DNA of 42,213 nucleotides, taken from the NCBI GenBank assembly GCA_963700155.1, contig OY969472.1, positions 132,058-174,270 of the forward strand, given 5' to 3'. The position numbers and the translations under genes were made by a program. The DNA comes from an uncultured bacterium. Its GTDB lineage: Bacteria; Patescibacteriota; Dojkabacteria; J137. Numbering within the stretch: position 1 is the stretch's first letter; each line of letters begins with the position of its first letter. Below are positions 11,919 to 38,708 of this stretch, one piece after another. Below the pieces are notes generated by a model that saw nothing but the letters and a program-made list of their open reading frames with translations, ran no database searches and had not been told where the DNA came from.

Positions 11919-11963
11919 ATTTAAAATACTCAACCTACTAATAACAATTATTTATTATCACTA

Positions 11964-12006
11964 GGTCGAGCCGGAGAGGCTCTTTCGAGACACTCTCCGG
12001 TCGACC
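11964..12006 (-). terminator. long GC-rich hairpin immediately 3' of the island-1 gene
   Basis: GGTCGAGCCGGAGAG ... CTCTCCGGTCGACC (one bulge). Begins 10 nt after the stop codon. No U-tract. Confidence 0.5.
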
Positions 12007-12015
12007 CTGCTCATG

Positions 12016-12588
12016 TTACGGAGCCCATACCGGCAGCAAGCTGCCGACTTCGAGGACCACATTGTGGTAATTCGAATCGGGCACGAAAAGATCCGCCCAG
12101 GCACCCTCGCCGGTCCGCGCGTTGTACCGCGACATGATAGCAACCTTGTCCCAGCTCATGTACTGAAGCTGGGAAGCAAAGCATCCAAGACTCGGTAGTG
12201 AACCATCGTCCGATTGGAGAACCCAGATGGAACCAGGCGGGAACGCCGGCATTGCCATCGTGCTCGGCGGCAGGATGGTAATGACTTCACGCCAAGGAAT
12301 TTCTGCGCCATTGATGATCACTGCCGCGCTCGGATTCGCCTGGTAAAAGGCCAAACCGTGAGGCAGCGCCATGCCGCGCTCATTGACGACGCCGTTGAAA
12401 GCTTCCGCAAACCGGCAACCCGTAGAATCGCTAAAGTAGGACATCCACAAGGGGATATCCTCTTCCAGCAAGGGCGTGTTCGGATCGGGAACATCTGTCG
12501 CCGCCTCGTCCTGCGCGAGGACGGTGTGACCAACCACGAACAAGAAAACGACAACCAGTAGCAAAGCAAAAAATCCAAACTTCTTCAT
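12016..12588 (-). CDS. secreted hypothetical protein encoded on GC-rich island 1
   Basis: Signal peptide MKKFGFFALLLVVVFLFVVGHTVLA|QDE. Canonical SD AGGAGG (12596-12601) 7 nt from the ATG. Line 12061-12120 has 37/60 G+C. Several same-region and antisense ORFs are GC artefacts. Confidence 0.7.
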   Translation of the reverse strand: MKKFGFFALLLVVVFLFVVGHTVLAQDEAATDVPDPNTPLLEEDIPLWMSYFSDSTGCRFAEAFNGVVNERGMALPHGLAFYQANPSAAVIINGAEIPWREVITILPPSTMAMPAFPPGSIWVLQSDDGSLPSLGCFASQLQYMSWDKVAIMSRYNARTGEGAWADLFVPDSNYHNVVLEVGSLLPVWAP

Positions 12589-12762
12589 GACCTATCCTCC
12601 TCTCGTTTCCGAGATATAAGCCCCTGGTCTTGGGGTTGCGGCCAGAGGCCGCATTTTCGTTTTAAAAGTCGCTTTGCGTTTTCGCCAGGGTAGCAACCTT
12701 TCATCCCTCTGCTGTCCAACCGAAATGGTCAGATTCCCCAGCAGCGCACAAAACAGAAACGA

Positions 12763-17420: not shown

Positions 17421-18029
17421 TTATTCTGAAGAGTCTTTTTCAATCTGAGTTAATGTTCTTCCTGTTTTAGCAGAATTATCTTCGTTAGGAAATGCCTTGC
17501 CCTCAAACTCATCTTTATCTTTTATCATTAGCCAGGATTTTTCACCTGCTCTTTTAAATCTTACTAGAGCATATTTCCCTTTGAGTTTTTTACCTTGAAG
17601 AAATAATTTTACCGCTCCTTTTTTTAAAGCTTTATTTATTTCTGTTTGAATTTCACTTCTATCTTTTACTTCCTTTGTTCCATCAGGAAGTTCAGGAATG
17701 TAATATGTACCTTCGTCCCAAACCATCACAGTTCCAGCGCCATAATTCCCTTCTGGAATAGTTCCTTCGAAATCTTTGTAGTCATAAGGATGATCTTCGA
17801 CCATTACTGCTAAATGACGTTCATTGGATTTGTTGGGCGGTCCCTTTGGGACCGCCCAACTTTTCAAAACCCCATCTACTTCGATTCTAAAATCATAGTG
17901 TAGCTGTTTTGCTTGATGCTTTTGTACAACAAATCTTAATGGACCTGTCGTTTTCACCGGCTCTGGTTCACCTTTAGGTTCATTAGTTTTTTTAAAATTT
18001 CGTTTTTTATTATATTTTCCTAATGGCAT
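17421..18029 (-). CDS. stand-alone LigD-type 3'-phosphoesterase (PE) domain protein
   Basis: LRFVVQKHQAKQLHYDFRIEVDGVLKSWAVPKGPP is the hallmark N-terminal motif of the DNA ligase D phosphoesterase domain. No ligase, polymerase or Ku gene adjacent. Confidence 0.8.
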   Translation of the reverse strand: MPLGKYNKKRNFKKTNEPKGEPEPVKTTGPLRFVVQKHQAKQLHYDFRIEVDGVLKSWAVPKGPPNKSNERHLAVMVEDHPYDYKDFEGTIPEGNYGAGTVMVWDEGTYYIPELPDGTKEVKDRSEIQTEINKALKKGAVKLFLQGKKLKGKYALVRFKRAGEKSWLMIKDKDEFEGKAFPNEDNSAKTGRTLTQIEKDSSE

Positions 18030-22751: not shown

Positions 22752-22910
22752 TTCCTCAATATAACTGATTCATTTCTTTATAATATTTGTTTATGTTATT
22801 TTATATATATGGGTATTGTATATTTCATACTCATTGTACTTTATAGAGTTGTTTAACCTATTACTCTGATCATTTAAAGTGTCAGAGTTGATTTTTTGTT
22901 AAACAGCACA

Positions 22911-22939
22911 TTGACAAGGAAGAAAGCTAGCTTGAAAAT
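22911..22939 (+). promoter_or_regulatory. candidate promoter for the island-2 gene
   Basis: TTGACA (22911-22916), 17-nt spacer, GAAAAT (22934-22939). SD AAGGA at 22961-22965. Confidence 0.35.
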
Positions 22940-22972
22940 CATTCAGTCGCATCTAGAAGAAAGGAAAAGAAA

Positions 22973-23818
22973 GTGAAGAAAGTAGTTCTCCTCATGATCT
23001 TGTTCTTCGCCGTAACTTCGTGCACACCGGGTGCTGTCAAAGCACAAAGCGAAACCAATCCCTGCACTGCATTTACACGGGTGAAGTTTCAGAATAATTC
23101 TGGTGGACTTATGGGAATCGTCACAATGTATGATGATGACAAGTTCACAGGAATTCTAGATTATAGTCTAAGCCGGCAGGATGAATTCACAGTAGTGGGC
23201 TGCAGTGGTGATGCAATTCTAGTAGTCAACCTGTATACTACAGGCTGGGTTGAAACCAAATATGCAGTAGTGACTGGGAATCCTCAACCCACTCCAGTTC
23301 CTCCGACTCCAATGGCTCAACCAGATCCTTGTGATACGGCAGGAACAGTAGATATCATTGGTACCAACGATCCATATGGTCTTTTCTATGGCTATACTGA
23401 TTCGTCACTTGAAGAAATTGAACTTCAAACCAAAAACGAGTTTTTGTACGTCGTTATTGGCTGCACGGAAAAAGCTGTGCAGGTCGCTTTTCCTGGTGAA
23501 GCTCCATTCTGGGTTGCAGAAGAATCAATAATTGCAGGAAGTAATTGGATCCTTCCGGAAGATATAAACTCCTGCGATTATGTCGGTGAATCTGTAATCC
23601 TAGCAGGTTATGATGACTCAGGGTTAATTTCTGTTTATCAGTATGATTCGCTTGTAGATAGTACTCAGCAATTTGAGAATATATACAAGTACGATGTCAT
23701 CGGTTGTTCTTCTGAAAATCCCAAAGCATTGCAAGTAACAAAGCCGGGGTTTCCGGAAGTTTGGATATCTACAGATGATGTTAAGGGGGCGACCAACTGG
23801 TCGCACCCACAGAGCTAA
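22973..23818 (+). CDS. putative lipoprotein with three SH3-like internal repeats, encoded on GC-elevated island 2
   Basis: GTG start 7 nt after AAGGA. Lipobox-like MILFFAVTSC. Three repeats built around (V/I)(V/I)GC(S/T)...(A/L)(I/V)(L/Q)V...W(V/I). P-rich linkers. Line 23281-23340 has 33/60 G+C. Confidence 0.65.
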   Translation: MKKVVLLMILFFAVTSCTPGAVKAQSETNPCTAFTRVKFQNNSGGLMGIVTMYDDDKFTGILDYSLSRQDEFTVVGCSGDAILVVNLYTTGWVETKYAVVTGNPQPTPVPPTPMAQPDPCDTAGTVDIIGTNDPYGLFYGYTDSSLEEIELQTKNEFLYVVIGCTEKAVQVAFPGEAPFWVAEESIIAGSNWILPEDINSCDYVGESVILAGYDDSGLISVYQYDSLVDSTQQFENIYKYDVIGCSSENPKALQVTKPGFPEVWISTDDVKGATNWSHPQS

Positions 23819-23833
23819 GGCTTTCTTCCGTAA

Positions 23834-23858
23834 GTAGGGGCTGCTTCGCAGCCCCTAC
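23834..23858. terminator. GC-rich hairpin between convergent genes
   Basis: GTAGGGGCTGC-TTC-GCAGCCCCTAC (11-bp stem). No U-tract on either strand, so terminator function is inferred from position only. Confidence 0.5.
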
Positions 23859-23889
23859 AAAAGCTTTAATTTCTGTATATTAATTCAAG

Positions 23890-31135: not shown

Positions 31136-32377
31136 ATGAATATCTTTAGCAATCATTACTTAATCGAAAATTTATCTAATCTTTTTTCTGCAGGACTATT
31201 AGCTTTTATTATTGCATTCCTTTTTACACCAATTGCTGGGAAAATTGCTTATGCTATAGGAGCAGTGGATCTTCCTGCAACTTTAAGAAATAAAACCGAA
31301 AGAGGTTTTAAAACCAGACTTCAGGAAGTTGCTGTTCCAAGATTAGGTGGATTAGCTATGGTTATTGCTATAATCATAGTATTACTTGCTACAAACAGTT
31401 TTGGAGTTTTACCAAAAGGAATAGTGCTTGGAGGAGCAATAATTATTATATTAGGATTCCTTGATGATACTTTTGAATTAGACGGAAGAATACAAATTCT
31501 TTTTCAAATTGCAGCAGCAGCTGTAGTTGTAATATCTGGAATTTCTATAACAAATATTCACTTTCTTGGGACACAAATTAATTTTAACTTATTCTCTGCT
31601 GTAATAGATTTTTTAGGATTCACTTATAATTTTATATTTCCAGCTGACTTAATTACTTTGCTTTGGATTGTAGGATTAATAAATGTTATAAACTGGGTCG
31701 GCGGTATTGATGGATTGAATGGATCCATAAGCAGTCTTGCAGCATTTACTCTTTTATTGTTTGCAATTTCAAGTGGGAATATCCCTTTGGCAATAATAAT
31801 ATCAATTCATTTAGGCAGCATTTTGGGAGTCTTACCATACAATTACAATCCAGCAAGAATTTATTATGGTATGGGAGATTACATAAATGGTTATATGTTG
31901 GCAGTTTTTGCAATTTTGGGAAGTACTAGATGGACTGCAACTCTTGTTCTTTTAGGTTTACCAATTGTTGATGGATTACTTGTATTTTTTATGCGGTTTA
32001 GATCTCATCCAGAATTAAGGAAAAGTCCTTGGAAGATTCTAGGAGTGAGTGATACTAATCATTTACATCATAGATTATTAGCAGCAGGATATTCAAAAAA
32101 GGCTGTTATGTTAGTTGAAGTTTCTATAATGACAGTACTTTGTACAATAGCAATTGTCTTTGGAGATATTAGAACTGATGTTACAGCATTTGTGATTGCA
32201 ACAGCTGTAATCTTCATAACATTTAGTGCAATATTTGTTCTTAAACAACGTAATGAAAAGAATCAAAAGTTAGATCTTCTAGGAAAATTAGAGGAAGAAG
32301 AGGAATTACCTAAAAAAGAGGCAGTTGTTACTACAATCAATGAAGAAGATGAATCTGATAAAAAGTTTATCTACTAA
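31136..32377 (+). CDS. polyprenyl-phosphate N-acetylhexosamine-1-phosphate transferase (MraY/WecA/TagO family)
   Basis: VPRLGGLAMVIA, GFLDDTFEL (DDxxD-type) and NVINWVGGIDGLNG motifs. 10-11 TM. Confidence 0.8.
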   Translation: MNIFSNHYLIENLSNLFSAGLLAFIIAFLFTPIAGKIAYAIGAVDLPATLRNKTERGFKTRLQEVAVPRLGGLAMVIAIIIVLLATNSFGVLPKGIVLGGAIIIILGFLDDTFELDGRIQILFQIAAAAVVVISGISITNIHFLGTQINFNLFSAVIDFLGFTYNFIFPADLITLLWIVGLINVINWVGGIDGLNGSISSLAAFTLLLFAISSGNIPLAIIISIHLGSILGVLPYNYNPARIYYGMGDYINGYMLAVFAILGSTRWTATLVLLGLPIVDGLLVFFMRFRSHPELRKSPWKILGVSDTNHLHHRLLAAGYSKKAVMLVEVSIMTVLCTIAIVFGDIRTDVTAFVIATAVIFITFSAIFVLKQRNEKNQKLDLLGKLEEEEELPKKEAVVTTINEEDESDKKFIY

Positions 32378-32432
32378 AAGTATTGAAGATTTCCAGGATT
32401 AATATATAATTAAATAAACAAGTAATAATTTT

Positions 32433-32438
32433 TATAAT
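32433..32438 (+). promoter_or_regulatory. -10 box (TATAAT) 7 nt upstream of the lemA ATG; implies a leaderless mRNA
   Basis: tttTATAATaaataatATG. No SD. Confidence 0.4.
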
Positions 32439-32445
32439 AAATAAT

Positions 32446-33024
32446 ATGGCATTAGGAGTATTAGGAATAATTGTCATCTGCATCGTACTGGTCGTTATTG
32501 CAGGAGCTGCGTTATATGTTTTAGGAGTATATAACTCTTTAAGAACACAGAATGTTCTTGTTGATGAAGGCTGGAGCGGAATTGATGTTTTGCTAAAAAA
32601 AAGATTCGATTTGATTCCGAATATTGTTGAGACAGTAAAAGGATATGCAAAACATGAGACAGGAATTTTTGAAAAAGTTGCAGAATTAAGATCGGGAATG
32701 ATGAATGCAAAAACACCTGAGGAAGTAGGAAAATATGAAGGTGAATTAAGAGGAACTCTTAAGACTTTATTTGCAGTTGCTGAAAACTATCCTGAATTAA
32801 AAGCTAATGAGAACTTTATGGGATTGCAAAAAAGTTTGCAACAAATTGAAGATGAACTAGAAAGTGCAAGAAGATACTACAATGGTGCAGTTAGAGATTT
32901 GAATGCAAAGATTGTTGTATTTCCAAACAGCGTTATTGCAAATATGTTTGGAATAAAAGCTAGACAATTCTTTGAAGTTGCTGATGCTGCTGAAAGAGAA
33001 AATGTAAAAGTTCAATTCAATTGA
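32446..33024 (+). CDS. lemA: LemA family protein
   Basis: N-terminal TM, then YNSLRTQNVLVDEGWSGIDVLLKKRFDLIPNIVETVKGYAKHE and RRYYNGAVRDLN, the characteristic LemA pattern. Confidence 0.85.
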   Translation: MALGVLGIIVICIVLVVIAGAALYVLGVYNSLRTQNVLVDEGWSGIDVLLKKRFDLIPNIVETVKGYAKHETGIFEKVAELRSGMMNAKTPEEVGKYEGELRGTLKTLFAVAENYPELKANENFMGLQKSLQQIEDELESARRYYNGAVRDLNAKIVVFPNSVIANMFGIKARQFFEVADAAERENVKVQFN

Positions 33025-33051
33025 CTTACTACTAAAAATTTTGCTATAAAT

Positions 33052-33076
33052 AGGCCGTTAATGAAATTAACGGCCT
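33052..33076. other. 11-bp hairpin between lemA and the 82-aa ORF (possible terminator)
   Basis: AGGCCGTTAAT-GAA-ATTAACGGCCT. It abuts the ATG at 33077. No plus-strand U-tract. Confidence 0.45.
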
Positions 33077-33325
33077 ATGAAAACACCAAACTTCGATATT
33101 AACAGAAAATTTGGAGTAAAAACTTCCGAAATTCCAGATTATGATCCAGAAAATTTTAATGGATGGTTTGAAATTATTTCACTATTTCAAAAAAAGGTTA
33201 GGTATGGGATAGCAATGGATCTTATATTAGAAGATTCTTTATATTTTTTTAAAGAAGAAAAACTAACTCAAATAATATTAAGTAAAAGAACATTAGAAGA
33301 GATACAAACTTATTCAAGCTATTGA
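33077..33325 (+). CDS. hypothetical small protein
   Basis: 82-aa ORF with native composition. No motif recognised. The start codon touches the hairpin. Confidence 0.4.
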   Translation: MKTPNFDINRKFGVKTSEIPDYDPENFNGWFEIISLFQKKVRYGIAMDLILEDSLYFFKEEKLTQIILSKRTLEEIQTYSSY

Positions 33326-33371
33326 GATTGTACAGCCCAGACTATTTAACGATGAAAGCTTAGAGGCATAA

Positions 33372-34241
33372 TTATTGATTTTTATATCTTGAGTTTTCCT
33401 TACAATCCTCACAACAGCCACCTTCAAATTTTTTATCGCATTCTTCACAACAGATAAATTGTTTATTACATTTTGCATTGCAGCAGTTTATATACCTTGC
33501 AACTTTTTTGCCGCAGTGGTGGCATTCACTTATAATTTCTGGATTAACAAAATTAACAGGAACATTAATTCTGTTATCAAAAACATACATTTCGCCTTCA
33601 AAATTTTTTCCTCCAGCAAGTTCAGAATATCTGTGAATGCCACCATGTAACTGCTTCACATCTTCTATTCCCCGATCTATTAAGAATGCTGAAAGTTTCT
33701 CACACCTTATTCCTCCTGTGCAATATGTAACAATTTTTTTATTTTTAAATAATTCTTTATTTTTTTCATACCATTCAGGAAAATCTCTAAAGTTTTTTAT
33801 TTCAGGTACAATTGCATTTTTAAATTTCCCAATTCTTCCTTCATATTCATTTCTACCATCCAATATTACGAACTCTGCTCCATTTTCATACAGTTCTTTT
33901 AATTCTTTTGGCTCAATATATTCTGCTGATTTATTTAAATCTACTTTGGTTTTGAAACTTACAATTTCATCACGAATAACCACTCTTAATTTAGGAAAAG
34001 GATTTTCAGTAGCCTCAGAAACCTTCCACTCTATCTTTCCAATTTCTGGATATTCTTCAGTTGCTTTCATATATTCATCTACTTTTTCTGGTTGACCTGC
34101 TAAAGTACCATTCAAACCTTCTTTAGATATCAAAATCCTACCTTTTAATTCAAACTTTGAACAAAACTGATGCTGAAAATCCCTAAATGCTTTAGGATCT
34201 GAAATATTTATAAATTTGTAATATAGAAGTACTTTAAACAT
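33372..34241 (-). CDS. trhO: rhodanese-domain tRNA uridine(34) hydroxylase TrhO (UPF0176/YceA family) with Cys-rich C-terminus
   Basis: Starts MFKVLLYYKF..., then ILISKEGLNGTLAG. Rhodanese active-site loop YCTGGIRCEK. C-terminal CxxC clusters. Minus-strand TGATATAAT at 34250-34258 ends 8 nt from the ATG. Confidence 0.8.
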   Translation of the reverse strand: MFKVLLYYKFINISDPKAFRDFQHQFCSKFELKGRILISKEGLNGTLAGQPEKVDEYMKATEEYPEIGKIEWKVSEATENPFPKLRVVIRDEIVSFKTKVDLNKSAEYIEPKELKELYENGAEFVILDGRNEYEGRIGKFKNAIVPEIKNFRDFPEWYEKNKELFKNKKIVTYCTGGIRCEKLSAFLIDRGIEDVKQLHGGIHRYSELAGGKNFEGEMYVFDNRINVPVNFVNPEIISECHHCGKKVARYINCCNAKCNKQFICCEECDKKFEGGCCEDCKENSRYKNQ

Positions 34242-34353
34242 AACTGAAAATTATATCATGAAGATTTTGAAATTTTTCTTCACTACCTGAGGAACGGGTG
34301 TTTAAAAGTTGAATTTTTAGTTTGCCCAAAACTTGACCAATTCTGTACCAAAA

Positions 34354-34383
34354 GTTGCCCAAATTGATTCCAATTTGGGCAAC
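34354..34383 (-). terminator. rho-independent terminator downstream of the island-3 gene
   Basis: 13-bp perfect stem GTTGCCCAAATTG / CAATTTGGGCAAC. On the minus strand it is followed by TTTTGG. Confidence 0.65.
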
Positions 34384-34456
34384 TTAAAAAAAATAAAAAA
34401 AGACTCACGAGAATCTGAATTGAAAAATTTAAGCTTATATTGAAATAATTAGGCAG

Positions 34457-35031
34457 AATAGAAGCAATAGCGTTTGAGTTCAATGTATCTTCCATCCTGC
34501 TTAGGAATAAGATCAAAGGAGATTGCCGGCGATGTCAATCCAAGCCAGAGATCTCTTGCTATACTTTTCCCTGCATACAGAGTTTGGCACGCAGGTAATT
34601 TCTAAATCTCGACCTTTAATGTTGATGGGCAGCTTGACTACTCCTGATTCTACAATCTCGATAGCCCTTTTCAAAGCAGCTACGTTGATTGTGCCAGTCA
34701 TAATCAGACCGCTTAAAACCTTACTATTCATTATAACGAACTCATTTTCTGGGTTCTGACGCAAAAGGCTCACGAACCGCCGTGAGTAATCATGCGCCAT
34801 TTCTTCGGTGACTTCATCAGAGACCCAACCACCATTACAGGTGGCAATCATCGTCTCCTGGAAAAAACAGACCATTCCGGGTTCTTGATACAGCAGAACT
34901 AAATCACGAACTGACGAGCCGGACATTATTTTATTTCTCCTATGTGGAAAATAAACGAAATGGGATTGTTCCCCACCAAATTACAAATTTATATAAACTG
35001 ATGGGGAACAATCCCTGCTATTGCTTCTATT
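34457..35031 (-). mobile_element. 575-bp single-gene cassette bounded by perfect 15-bp inverted repeats (putative; mobility unproven)
   Basis: AATAGAAGCAATAGC (34457-34471) and its exact reverse complement GCTATTGCTTCTATT (35017-35031) bracket the GC-elevated ORF and its leader. No transposase present. Confidence 0.35.
34513..34926 (-). CDS. hypothetical cytoplasmic protein encoded on GC-elevated island 3
   Basis: 137-aa ORF. SD AGGAG (34937-34941) 10 nt from the ATG. Line 34801-34860 has 30/60 G+C. No signal peptide or recognised motif. Confidence 0.65.
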   Translation of the reverse strand: MSGSSVRDLVLLYQEPGMVCFFQETMIATCNGGWVSDEVTEEMAHDYSRRFVSLLRQNPENEFVIMNSKVLSGLIMTGTINVAALKRAIEIVESGVVKLPINIKGRDLEITCVPNSVCREKYSKRSLAWIDIAGNLL

Positions 35032-35084
35032 TTTAAAGAACATTAGGTATGAGCTAATCGCATCATTACCTTTATTCTATCAGT

Positions 35085-35093
35085 ATTATATCA
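35085..35093 (-). promoter_or_regulatory. extended -10 promoter (TGATATAAT) upstream of the island-3 cassette
   Basis: Perfect minus-strand TGnTATAAT 54 nt outside the right inverted repeat. Confidence 0.45.
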
Positions 35094-35160
35094 TCAATAT
35101 ATACATATTGTCATCTGATACTGGCAACAATATTATAGCAAATTCATAAAATCTGAAAAA

Positions 35161-36936
35161 TTATTTTGTTGGTACCCCTAGGTAATCTTTTATATCATTG
35201 AAAGTATCAAGCCACATAGGTCTTGCATTATAGTAAGAAAGTAAATCACCTGCTGGAATTTGAGGTCTTTCAAGTCTTAATAGCATAATAAAAGTATGTT
35301 GATCTGAAGCATCGAATCCAACATAAGTCGCATTAATATCATTAGAATAACCAGTAGAATTAGCAATTAAAGCAGTTCCTGATTTTACTGCAATATCATA
35401 TTTATTTAGATCCCAATAATACCATTCATCAAGGGCATCAGAATAATATTTTCTCATCATATCTGTAACTTCATTCGCTGTTTTTTTACTAACAGTTCTT
35501 CCAACAACAACAGGATTATAGTCTTTAACAGTTCCATCTGACTCTTCCACCTTAGTAACTATCATAGGCTTCATTCTGATACCCCCCATTGCGATTGAAG
35601 CAGCTGCCTCGGTTGCCTGGACTGTATTTAATAAATATCCATGACCATATGAGAAAGCAGCAACATCACCAATTGTCCAATTTTCATAATCTTTCAGTGG
35701 TCCATAAGATTCTCCACTCAAATCAATTCCGCTAGGAACCCCTATACCAAATTTAGCTAAATAATCATAAAAATCTTTTCTATCTAACTTAAGAGCAACA
35801 TGATAAAAACATATATTATCTGAAAGAACAAAACATTTCCATAAAGGCATTGGCGGCTGGGGCTTTTTATCCCAGGTGCAAATTGGTTGAAGATCGTTAC
35901 TGATTTTTTCACATCCTTGATGCCCATTCGGTAAGATTATTGTATCCGGAGTCACAACTCCAAGTTCAATTGCTGCACTGGAAGTAAATATTTTTCCAAC
36001 TGATCCGATTTCATAAGGAGATGTAATACCTAAATCACCATATGCATTAGGATCTTTTTCTGACCTAGTATTTGGATCATAATCAGGGTAATTTGCTAAT
36101 GCAATTATTCTTCCAGTCTTAGGATCCATAACTACGATACTTCCTGATTTAGCTTGATATTTTTCTACTCCATTTTTCAAATCTTTTTGAATAATCTTTT
36201 GAATTTGTTCATCAATTGATGTATAGATATTGCTTCCATTTTTTGGTTCAATAGTTGGCAATAGTTCATTGGTTACAGCCTGTCCTCTAGCATCATTTTC
36301 TTGGATAACATAACCTTTTACAGGGTTAAGCATATCATTATAATTTCCTTCAAGACCTCCAACTCCTATAACCTGATCTTTATAAGTATTTGTTAATCCT
36401 AAAACATGAGCAGCTAAATTACCCTCTGGATAAATTCTTTTTGAAGTAAATTCTGCATCTACTCCTTTAATATTAAAATCAGGATATTTATCTGATTTTA
36501 AGTTCTGAATTTCCTGCCATTGTCCTATTGTGATCTCTTTTGCTATTGGAATTCTTTGAACACCATCTTGAATATATTTATTTATTGTTTTTGTAAGATC
36601 ATCTTGCTTAACTTTTATTATTGAAGCGATTTTTGAAATAAATTCATCTCTTGTTTGAAGCTTTTGTTGTTCAAAAAATTCAAGATCAGGAAGCCAAATA
36701 TATACGTTAACTCTTGGTTCTGAATAAGCCAAAGTACTTCCGTCATCTGAATAAATAGAACCTCTAACTGAATCAATTTCTGAACTTTGAACTCTACTAT
36801 TAGCAATTTGAGTAAACTTTGACCCTTCTACAACGTTCCATCTGACAAGAAAAAATAGTAAGAGTAATGTAAAGAGGATTACTATGAAATGAATTATTTT
36901 AATCTTCCCGAAAATTTCAGGTTTTGAAAGTTTCAT
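35161..36936 (-). CDS. ftsI: class B penicillin-binding protein (FtsI/PBP2-type transpeptidase)
   Basis: N-terminal TM. SxxK (SVGK in EIGSVGKIF), SxN (SDN) and KSG (KSGTA) motifs. Position after ftsL in the dcw block. Confidence 0.85.
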   Translation of the reverse strand: MKLSKPEIFGKIKIIHFIVILFTLLLLFFLVRWNVVEGSKFTQIANSRVQSSEIDSVRGSIYSDDGSTLAYSEPRVNVYIWLPDLEFFEQQKLQTRDEFISKIASIIKVKQDDLTKTINKYIQDGVQRIPIAKEITIGQWQEIQNLKSDKYPDFNIKGVDAEFTSKRIYPEGNLAAHVLGLTNTYKDQVIGVGGLEGNYNDMLNPVKGYVIQENDARGQAVTNELLPTIEPKNGSNIYTSIDEQIQKIIQKDLKNGVEKYQAKSGSIVVMDPKTGRIIALANYPDYDPNTRSEKDPNAYGDLGITSPYEIGSVGKIFTSSAAIELGVVTPDTIILPNGHQGCEKISNDLQPICTWDKKPQPPMPLWKCFVLSDNICFYHVALKLDRKDFYDYLAKFGIGVPSGIDLSGESYGPLKDYENWTIGDVAAFSYGHGYLLNTVQATEAAASIAMGGIRMKPMIVTKVEESDGTVKDYNPVVVGRTVSKKTANEVTDMMRKYYSDALDEWYYWDLNKYDIAVKSGTALIANSTGYSNDINATYVGFDASDQHTFIMLLRLERPQIPAGDLLSYYNARPMWLDTFNDIKDYLGVPTK

Positions 36937-36937
36937 C

Positions 36938-37267
36938 TTAGTTTACTTTTACAGCTAAGCCGTCAAAGTTTGCATCATCAACAAAAGTGGTTGTCTTTTG
37001 TACTAAATCATATTTCTTAATTACTGTTTTTGTAGAAGCATAAGTTTTAGCTTTATCAATTTCAGATTCTAAATATTTGTTTTCTTGTCTTACTGTATCT
37101 TTTTGACTTCTTGTTAAATCGATTTCCTGGGTTTTTGTTCCGTATCTTGAAGTAATTATAATCTGTACAGCAAAAAAAGCCATCAAAAGAAAGATGTTAA
37201 TCATAAATAATTTCTTATTTATGCTTTTAAAATTTATATTTTTTGTATCAAAATTTCCTGCTTTCAT
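36938..37267 (-). CDS. ftsL: cell division protein FtsL-like (single TM + coiled coil)
   Basis: 109 aa. TM at MINIFLLMAFFAVQIIITS followed by a helical region. Located between rsmH and ftsI, with a 4-nt overlap with rsmH. Confidence 0.6.
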   Translation of the reverse strand: MKAGNFDTKNINFKSINKKLFMINIFLLMAFFAVQIIITSRYGTKTQEIDLTRSQKDTVRQENKYLESEIDKAKTYASTKTVIKKYDLVQKTTTFVDDANFDGLAVKVN

Positions 37268-38244
37268 TTATTAATTATTATTTTTTTAATACCAAATAAT
37301 TTTGCACTTCTAGAATTAATATTGTTCCTTAATTCATCAACAGTCGGTGTAAAAAATTTATTATCAAATTTTTTAGTTAAATAACTCGCTTCACCAGCTT
37401 TAACTTCTTTATCAAAAAACTCTTCGGCCAATTTTGATTCACCTGAATGAAAAGTGATTATTAAAAACTTCCCATTTATTTTTAAACTTTCAAAACCAGA
37501 ATTTAATATATCACTTAAGTTAATCATCTCTTGATTAACTGCGATTCTTAAAGCTTGAAATACTTTTGAATATATTGAATTTTTATTCTTAGTATTTTTA
37601 AATACTTTGTCGATAATTTCTGTTAAATCACTAACAGTTTTAAAGAGTTTCTGATTCCTTTTTCTTATAATCTCAGATACTAATTGCTCGTTTAGCTTAC
37701 CGTAAATATCAGAGTATTCTTTAAACATAACACTTAGTTCTTTCTTATTAAGAGCATTCAGTAAATCAGATGCTTTAACTCCTAGATTTTCATCAAATCT
37801 CATGTCAAGATCATTATTTTGACCTTCATATGACAATCCCTCTATATTCTCTAACTGATCTGTTGACCAACCTAAATCAACTAATATGCCATCGAGGTTA
37901 TTTTTATGCTCTTCTAATAAATACTGATTTAATTTAGTGAAGTTATCATTAACAATAGTTACTTTATTGCGGCCATTCCCTAAAGAAAATTTTGAAACGT
38001 TCTTGATTTTTTCTAATTCGTTTTTATCAGAATCTTCTTTATATCCCAAGTTTTTTATTTCATTTTCAAAATTTTCAATTGCAGATTTATCAAGATCAAA
38101 AACATAAAGAAAACCACTATTCAAATTTTCTAATATTTTCAGGGAATGGCCGCCACTTCCTAAAGTCAAATCGGCATAAATCCCATTGGTATTAATTTGT
38201 AAAAGATCGATTGCTTCGTTTAAAAAAACTGTTATATGTTTCAT
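37264..38244 (-). CDS. rsmH: 16S rRNA (cytosine1402-N4)-methyltransferase RsmH
   Basis: HITVFLNEAIDLL, SAM motif DLTLGSGGHS, DLGWSTDQL. Position after mraZ. Confidence 0.9.
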   Translation of the reverse strand: MKHITVFLNEAIDLLQINTNGIYADLTLGSGGHSLKILENLNSGFLYVFDLDKSAIENFENEIKNLGYKEDSDKNELEKIKNVSKFSLGNGRNKVTIVNDNFTKLNQYLLEEHKNNLDGILVDLGWSTDQLENIEGLSYEGQNNDLDMRFDENLGVKASDLLNALNKKELSVMFKEYSDIYGKLNEQLVSEIIRKRNQKLFKTVSDLTEIIDKVFKNTKNKNSIYSKVFQALRIAVNQEMINLSDILNSGFESLKINGKFLIITFHSGESKLAEEFFDKEVKAGEASYLTKKFDNKFFTPTVDELRNNINSRSAKLFGIKKIIINK

Positions 38245-38282: not shown

Positions 38283-38708
38283 TTAGGAGCCAGACAATCT
38301 TTCGGCGATATCAGAAACATTTTCACCTAAACTATCTAGTTTATCCTGCCATTTTTGCTCATTCCAAATTTCAATCCATTCTCCAACCCCCAAAAAAACT
38401 ATTCCTTGTTCAATACCTGCAAAGTTCTTTAAAGATTCGGGCAGGACGAACCTGCCCTGGGAGTCATATTCAACTTCAACTGCTCCTCCAATAATAAATC
38501 TTTTTGTATCCCGTACACCTAAAGAGAGTAAAGGTTTTTTATTTATTTCTTCTACCAACGAGTCCCATCTTTGACTATCTACTAAGATTAAACATCTTTC
38601 ATAACCTCTTGTAACAATGACTTTACCATTTAAAAAATCTCTTAATTTTTTTGGAATTGACAACCTATTCTTTTCTCCTAATTGCGTATAAAACTCACCT
38701 ATTAACAT
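38283..38708 (-). CDS. mraZ: transcriptional regulator MraZ
   Basis: MLIGEFYTQLGEKNRLSIPKKLR and a second half-domain with DSQGRFVLPESL (duplicated SpoVT/AbrB-like units). 141 aa. Confidence 0.9.
   Translation of the reverse strand: MLIGEFYTQLGEKNRLSIPKKLRDFLNGKVIVTRGYERCLILVDSQRWDSLVEEINKKPLLSLGVRDTKRFIIGGAVEVEYDSQGRFVLPESLKNFAGIEQGIVFLGVGEWIEIWNEQKWQDKLDSLGENVSDIAERLSGS

Follow-up and report, generated by a model that had tools for sequence, protein, structure and literature searches.

How a single gene of foreign composition came to lie between two otherwise adjacent genes, and whether the perfect inverted repeats that bracket it had any part in its arrival or expression, are the questions raised by a locus of an uncultured bacterium of the Dojkabacteria (Patescibacteriota). 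Patescibacteria have small, streamlined genomes, and gene gain in these organisms is little understood. The window analysed here is the whole stretch of 42,213 nt from contig OY969472.1 (assembly GCA_963700155.1), an AT-rich (31% GC), Dojkabacteria-like piece of Patescibacteria chromosome whose closest database relatives carry the labels Candidatus Dojkabacteria or Saccharibacteria. Within it, an open reading frame (ORF) of 137 amino acids (aa) stands on the minus strand (34513-34926) between ftsI, the end of the cell-division (dcw) block, and trhO. An earlier note on this DNA had described the ORF as promoterless and terminatorless cargo dropped into an expression slot between 15-bp repeats. 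The evidence presented below indicates an acquired islet that probably has its own signals, rather than a cassette in a pre-existing slot. The fuller picture, in which this one-gene islet resembles a phage moron and the repeat arms, if active at all, work through the RNA, is our preferred reading, held with slightly less than even confidence.

The gene order mraZ-mraW-ftsL-ftsI-trhO, with trhO directly behind ftsI, was found in five distinct relatives, namely L002, L011 (together with L012), L013 (together with L014 and L015), L016 and L150, with TrhO identities of 40-70%. The ftsI-trhO spacer measured 100 nt in L002, 138 nt in L011 and L012, 81 nt in L013, L014 and L015, 61 nt in L016 and 32 nt in L150, compared with 919 nt in the window. 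The extra DNA in the window amounts to ~780-890 nt and exceeds the 575-nt unit bounded by the repeats. The site was empty in all five distinct relatives with this adjacency, and no GC-anomalous ORF was present behind ftsI in any of the 13 related loci. Relative to these relatives, the content of the 919-nt spacer is a lineage-specific insertion. The view that the ORF is foreign cargo was thereby borne out by the empty site, for which the earlier note had proposed comparing this interval, and by the anomalous composition described below. In the window, the genes involved lie on the minus strand: mraZ (38283-38708), mraW (37264-38244), ftsL (36938-37267), ftsI (35161-36936) and, downstream of the ORF, trhO (33372-34241). 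The relative L150 is a Logan contig of SRR30597359 with a TrhO 65% identical; its length of 42,213 bases, the same as that of the window, was taken as a coincidence.

The downstream limit of the extra DNA was indicated by L016, the most syntenic relative, which also has the lemA and glycosyltransferase-4 neighbours in common with the window. Its spacer ended with GATGATATAAT, 7 nt ahead of the trhO ATG, and the window contained CATGATATAAT 8 nt ahead of it (34258-34250). Since L016 and the window share this trhO promoter, the native promoter (34242-34274, minus strand, with TGATATAAT at 34258-34250) appears to have been retained, with all of the extra DNA upstream of it. The short distance to the ATG suggests that the trhO mRNA is leaderless and that this promoter type is conserved in the lineage. 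The motif TGATATAAT occurred five times in the window (at 2406, 6327, 30460, 34250-34258 and 35085) versus 1.9 expected. The ftsI-trhO spacer of L016 had no spare promoter-terminator pair.

The ORF had a GC content of 0.452 and a GC content at third codon positions (GC3) of 0.486, versus ~0.31 and ~0.19 for native genes, and its codon-adaptation index, built from the other genes of the window, was 0.41 versus 0.63-0.79. Its codon usage is foreign and un-ameliorated. The ORF is likely to be a real gene, with 137 open codons, a GC content higher at first than at second codon positions, and a strong Shine-Dalgarno sequence (SD; AGGAG, 34941-34937) 10 nt ahead of the ATG; the GC-elevated, SD-preceded ORF that had been described from the sequence was recovered as such. 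The alternative that the locus encodes a structured RNA rather than a protein was rejected, as no Rfam family was found at threshold (only hairpin-like sub-threshold noise) and the interior of the unit was only mildly structured (folding z = -2.55).

The predicted product (~15.3 kDa, isoelectric point 5.4) showed no signal peptide or membrane segment that was evident by eye, no predictor being used. No relatives were found in Pfam, NCBIfam, PHROGs, PADLOC or PDB sequences, and in a search of 5.8 billion clusters the protein matched only itself. A phmmer search of 1.84 billion representatives returned three matches, all to long repeat proteins (Big_3, ankyrin-like and unknown), each covering a different short stretch of the query. 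As the families were unrelated and the pieces of the query differed, these matches were rejected as repeat-driven score inflation. By these sequence searches, the protein is an orphan. A single-sequence AlphaFold2 model was unreliable (predicted local distance difference test score, 43.6), and a Foldseek comparison of this model with the PDB, which returned nothing below E = 0.5, was uninformative.

The ORF is surrounded by candidate expression signals, all on the minus strand. A promoter-like site (35114-35085) comprised ATGACA and TATAAT separated by 18 nt, with an extended -10 element (TGATATAAT; TG present) and 11 of 12 consensus matches, and would place the transcription start near 35078 at consensus level. 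A second, upstream promoter-like site (35132-35159; TTTTCA-16 nt-TATAAT, with TG) lay directly behind the ftsI stop codon. Within the predicted leader, a hairpin (34962-35015), whose stem is perfect over 14 bp and can be extended to 22 bp at 86% (stems GGGATTGTTCCCCA), lay 1 nt from the right repeat arm; the z-score of the leader was -8.35, and no counterpart of the hairpin was found in the relatives. With AUUUCGUUUAUUUU following on the minus strand, the hairpin resembles a terminator or attenuator. The proximal leader (34927-34961) contained the SD, predicted to lie in a weak local hairpin or to pair with the 3' end of the ORF. Beyond the stop codon, two terminator-like elements followed in tandem. 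The first (34386-34415) was a 5-bp hairpin, GAUUCUCGUGAGUC, which also appeared in the predicted fold and was followed by U7-A-U8, and the second (34352-34385) had a 15-bp perfect stem with a 4-nt loop, followed by UUUUGG.

The earlier note had placed a promoter at 35085-35093 and a strong terminator at 34354-34383, and a promoter-like site and a perfect hairpin were indeed present at these places. What could not be upheld was their interpretation as a slot that had received a promoterless and terminatorless cargo. The relatives, with spacers of 32-138 nt, have no such slot, and the extra DNA is larger than the 575-nt unit and itself contains the promoter-like site and the terminators. These two facts together suggest that the inserted block carried its own signals or has since acquired them. 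In the preferred reading, ~0.8-0.9 kb of foreign DNA would have been acquired horizontally into the ftsI-trhO spacer, upstream of the retained trhO promoter. It would form a self-contained unit of promoter-like site (35114-35085), structured leader, SD, orphan gene and two tandem terminator-like hairpins, in which the use of the promoter and terminators is deduced from their sequence.

Such an arrangement recalls phage morons, which are transcription units in their own right that horizontal transfer has placed between two genes (PMC3594210). Like them, the islet consists of a single ORF of deviant composition with its own promoter- and terminator-like signals (at consensus level), placed between genes that are adjacent in relatives. 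It differs in its location, the chromosome of a cellular Patescibacteria host where the dcw block ends, and in its flanking inverted repeats, which are not a defining feature of morons. No phage genes lay near the islet, which also lacked PHROG hits and DNA matches to phages. By analogy, the islet would work like a moron without being one in the strict sense.

Several further sequence features were noted around these signals. The sequence TTGCCCAAA was present in three copies within 34314-34390 (34321-34331, 34355-34363 and, inverted, 34373-34381), which would give the first arm of the strong hairpin a choice of two partners; this stretch, separating the inserted gene from trhO, may be an alternative-structure element. 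A further inverted pair, perfect over 14 nt (TATAAATTTGTAAT / ATTACAAATTTATA), connected the first trhO codons (34209-34222) with the loop of the leader hairpin (34980-34993); it is AT-rich and at chance level (~1.2 expected per window). An upstream ORF of 20 codons (MFFKNRSNSRDCSPSVYINL; 35043-34981, minus strand) spanned the right repeat arm as well as the 5' arm of the leader hairpin, and its start overlapped the stop of a 7-codon mini-ORF (UAAUG). Its translation, should it occur, would melt the right-arm stem and the leader hairpin. It had no clear SD, and ORFs of 20 codons are no rarity where AT content is high.

The inverted repeat itself was confirmed. The left arm, AATAGAAGCAATAGC (34457-34471), lies in the 3' untranslated region (UTR), 41 nt past the stop codon, and the rise in GC content starts at its inner edge. 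The right arm (35017-35031) is the exact reverse complement and lies in the predicted 5' UTR, ~47 nt past the predicted start. The arms are 545 nt apart and delimit a unit of 575 nt containing the leader hairpin, the SD and the ORF. The match did not extend beyond 15 bp (2 of 10 positions outward and 1 of 10 inward). The sequences abutting the arms on the outside were AATTAGGCAG and TTTAAAGAAC, and no direct repeat of 2-12 bp abutted the arms, in agreement with the earlier note, which had reported no target-site duplication.

Whether this pair of 15-mers is more than a coincidence was judged against shuffled sequence and against the rest of the window. Of windows shuffled by an order-2 Markov model, 26% contained a perfect inverted pair of at least 15 bp within 1 kb (mean 0.38), and the real window held four other such pairs of 15-17 bp (9868/9951, 20479/20552, 21439-21455/21559-21575 and 25740/25946), versus 0.38 expected per window. 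Two of these, 20479/20552 and 25740/25946, were inside coding sequence (an NHL-repeat/dockerin protein and an ABC-2 permease). The claim that such a repeat is very unlikely by chance was therefore overstated, although a more focused test gave a different picture. An RNAduplex comparison of the 150-nt flanks of all genes was uninformative, with long interior loops inflating the energies, and the longest perfect complement between the two 250-nt flanks of each gene was used instead. By this measure, the 137-aa ORF ranked first of 41 genes with 15 nt, and a complement of at least 15 nt arose in none of 2000 trials in which its flanks were shuffled. The runner-up was a 14-nt pair bracketing ftsL, with both arms in coding DNA. 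Taken together, the repeat is statistically suggestive, roughly at the 1-5% level for the window, and not decisive; its placement is notable, with both arms non-coding and bracketing a foreign gene. Of the remaining pairs, the 17-bp one (21439-21455/21559-21575) was located in the spacer upstream of an MFS transporter gene, with its right arm touching the start codon.

On these figures, the pair could be a functionless background match of AT-rich sequence within an islet that is itself real. Besides the frequency of such pairs in shuffled and real sequence, including the ftsL pair in coding DNA, a chance match is favoured by the form of the repeat, whose perfect run stands alone and is not prolonged by an imperfect match at either end. 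It is also favoured by the lack of any other copy of the 15-mer in the window and related loci, by the single, chance-level nature of the IMG/VR matches among those listed, and by two other GC-rich islets of the window that have no comparable repeat. Coincidence accounts less readily for the first rank among 41 genes and the result of the flank shuffles, for the non-coding position of both arms within the predicted transcription unit, and for their boundaries, the left arm lying where the GC rise begins and the right arm abutting the leader hairpin. We regard a coincidental repeat as possible but unlikely.

If the repeat is not accidental, one reading is that its arms are relics of the terminal inverted repeats of a non-autonomous element, which a transposase from elsewhere would have moved in trans, delivering the gene. 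Elements of this kind are known as mobile insertion cassettes (MICs) and MITEs (miniature transposable elements with inverted repeats) with passenger genes, such as MIC231 and its relatives (PMC6542083, PMC4337579, PMC5444012). The islet resembles them in having inverted repeats at both ends of a non-transposase gene and no transposase inside. The repeats are perfect, they bound a unit that is inserted relative to all relatives, and the left arm's inner edge marks the start of the shift in composition. The islet differs in that its repeats are short (15 bp) and isolated and that the inserted DNA reaches past them. The empty site did not differ from the window by exactly the repeat-bounded unit, the excess being ~780-890 nt as against 575 nt (measured on distant relatives), so the promoter-like site and the terminators fall outside the would-be element.

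The hallmarks of mobility were likewise missing from the sequences covered. In addition to the lack of a target-site duplication, which is a defining mark of such elements, neither the window nor 178 kb of related loci yielded another exact copy of the 15-mer or a second inverted pair of it. IMG/VR contained at least 118 matches to the 15-mer, all of them single and at chance level among the matches listed, with no inverted pair, and the hairpin stem pattern was absent from that collection. A hairpin scan of JGI metagenomes yielded 14 matches, which were unrelated palindromes sharing an 11-mer stem, mostly from genomes of much higher GC content (locus GC 0.41-0.73); the 15-mer was found near the hairpin pattern in none of them, leaving no hairpin-plus-repeat end in this collection. 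No DNA match of the unit to phage or plasmid collections was detected. No ORF of the 42-kb window contained a transposase, integrase or invertase (serine or tyrosine recombinase) Pfam domain, and no cognate transposase was identified among them. The search for inverted 15-mer pairs elsewhere, by which the earlier note had hoped to recognise the termini of a mobile element, thus gave no support to that proposal, and we consider an origin as relic terminal repeats distinctly unlikely.

Its second proposal, recombination sites of a cassette system, fared no better. As in an integron cassette, a small ORF of foreign composition lies beside an imperfect palindrome. However, this only palindrome (34962-35015, with the GGGATTGTTCCCCA stems) lies 5' of the ORF and lacks the RYYYAAC / GTTRRRY cores of attC. 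Moreover, there was no intI, attI or cassette array (the neighbours being ftsI and trhO) and no integrase in the 42 kb, and the ORF comes with a promoter-like site. There is no support for either a cassette or terminal repeats. Three other kinds of element were considered and rejected: a retron, for which no reverse transcriptase was present; IS200/IS605-type ends, only one subterminal hairpin being present; and a homing-endonuclease gene, the 137-aa protein having no Pfam match.

The integrity of the locus was examined in an independent assembly, and both junctions were reproduced. In the Logan k=31 assembly of ERR11571143, a first contig was identical to window positions 31928-34983 and thus included trhO, the left arm and the whole ORF; a second extended from 34954 through the leader hairpin, the right arm and ftsI to past the window end. 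Both arms were crossed unbroken, with no graph branch at either arm, in the same orientation in the two assemblies. Neither an inverted nor an excised form was seen in the source assembly or the Logan k=31 contigs, in which rare variants are dropped. The two Logan contigs overlapped by exactly 30 nt (k-1) at 34954-34983, within the leader hairpin. An overlap of this length suggests a branch of the assembly graph rather than a gap in coverage, so that another sequence in the sample may share the 30-mer and diverge at 34984 or 34953.

These contigs also bear on the possibility that the arms are the recombination sites of an inverton, in which an invertase would flip the 545-nt segment such that the gene would be read from the outside promoter in just one of the two orientations, giving phase variation. 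The geometry would suit such a switch, with the promoter-like site outside one arm and the terminators outside the other. Nevertheless, the window encodes no serine or tyrosine recombinase, and the single orientation without a branch in two assemblies is further, if weak, evidence against it, given that contigs drop rare variants. Phase variation by inversion seems very improbable to us. The unbranched passage of the contigs through both arms also counts against relic terminal repeats.

The third proposal of the earlier note, an mRNA whose 5' and 3' ends pair, was compatible with the anatomy of the islet as modelled. From 5' to 3', the predicted minus-strand RNA would comprise the start at ~35078, a small 5' stem-loop, the right arm (35031-35017), the leader hairpin (35015-34962), the SD, the ORF, the left arm (34471-34457) and the two terminator-like hairpins, so that both arms fall within the predicted transcript. 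In this predicted 734-nt RNA, the 15 arm-arm pairs formed with probabilities of 0.78-1.0, with a duplex energy of -20.5 kcal/mol, and the closing stem lay 1 nt from the leader hairpin. The whole unit folded with z = -8.0 relative to shuffles, compared with the -2.55 of the interior alone, an excess due to the closing stem and the leader hairpin. On this model, the predicted transcript is a structured mRNA and not an RNA gene. In the preferred reading, the arms would pair and close the mRNA into one large domain beside the strong leader hairpin, and the closing stem would affect mRNA stability, processing or translation. A second complementarity, between the SD region and the last codons of the ORF and the 3' UTR, reached -17.2 kcal/mol versus a shuffle mean of -9.1 (P ~0.01).

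Pairing between the 5' and 3' UTRs has precedents in bacteria, in icaR of S. aureus (PMC3868564) and hbs of B. subtilis (PMC5737220). The islet resembles these cases in the complementarity of leader and trailer within one monocistronic (here predicted) mRNA, and in the secondary complementarity at the SD region. It differs in that its 15-bp stem leaves the SD uncovered and that there are no homologues in which conservation could be seen.

A number of observations speak against parts of the preferred reading. The uncovered SD is one of them, and the arms are ~47 nt and 70-100 nt away from the predicted RNA ends rather than at them. In silico, a stem would form between any two perfectly complementary 15-mers; the unit's interior was only mildly structured, and the start, the ends and the pairing of the RNA are predictions. 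With no homologue of the ORF, covariation is unusable for the arm pairing. The SD-to-ORF-end complementarity was matched by 2 of 39 other genes of the window, and was given little weight because of these similar scores. The acquisition of the signals is also affected: the promoter-like region is AT-rich and of native composition, and the upstream promoter-like site resembles the trhO promoter at 19 of 25 positions, a likeness that may point to local duplication rather than imported DNA. Finally, the nearest relatives are distant (TrhO at most 70% identical), so that the insertion is neither datable nor delimitable to the base. Of the functional roles considered for the repeat, that of an RNA clamp is the most coherent, given that both arms fall within the predicted transcript, that the stem would stack on the leader hairpin and that there are precedents; it is put forward as a doubtful, if conceivable, part of the model.

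Two other islets of foreign composition were present in the window. The second islet (11957-12760) contained an ORF on the minus strand (12016-12588) with a GC content of 0.56, a GC3 of 0.67 and an adaptation index of 0.31. Its 190-aa product has a signal-peptide-like N-terminus and looks secreted; it had no Pfam hit and matched only itself among the 5.8 billion clusters, and is thus another orphan. GC-rich hairpins were found on both sides of this islet, with no strong flanking inverted repeat. The third islet (22900-23860) contained an ORF on the plus strand (22973-23818; GC 0.44, GC3 0.37) for a 281-aa lipoprotein-like protein with the N-terminus VKKVVLLMILFFAVTSC and no Pfam hit, and a GC-rich hairpin followed at 23834-23858. 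The repeat architecture of the 137-aa ORF was not found at either islet, the 281-aa ORF having only an ordinary, perfect 10-bp pair (GGAAGAAAGC / GCTTTCTTCC) 47 nt before its start and 2 nt after its stop. The differences in GC3 among the islets suggest separate acquisitions. As single-ORF insertion seems to be common in this genome without such repeats, the repeat is less likely to be insertion machinery.

Three single-gene islets of foreign composition therefore occur within 42 kb, and two of them encode proteins without relatives in billions of sequences. As it stands, the ftsI-trhO islet is a clean example of the acquisition of an orphan gene, an ordinary event in an unusual host and not a new system. 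If the flanking repeat were functional, it would mark either a delivery vehicle or an mRNA design that permits the expression of foreign genes in these organisms. In the boldest version, the arms would be the ends of an unseen, low-copy Patescibacteria cassette vehicle that delivers orphan genes into spacers without target duplication, or an mRNA-closing clamp that travels with mobile orphan genes. We consider this improbable; were the vehicle real, the GC-rich orphan islets of the genome would be products of that route. The window also encodes, on the minus strand (17421-18029), a protein with a LigD 3'-phosphoesterase domain (PF13298, E = 1.6e-43), a component of end-joining repair that could bear on how foreign DNA is captured at breaks with no duplication of the target.

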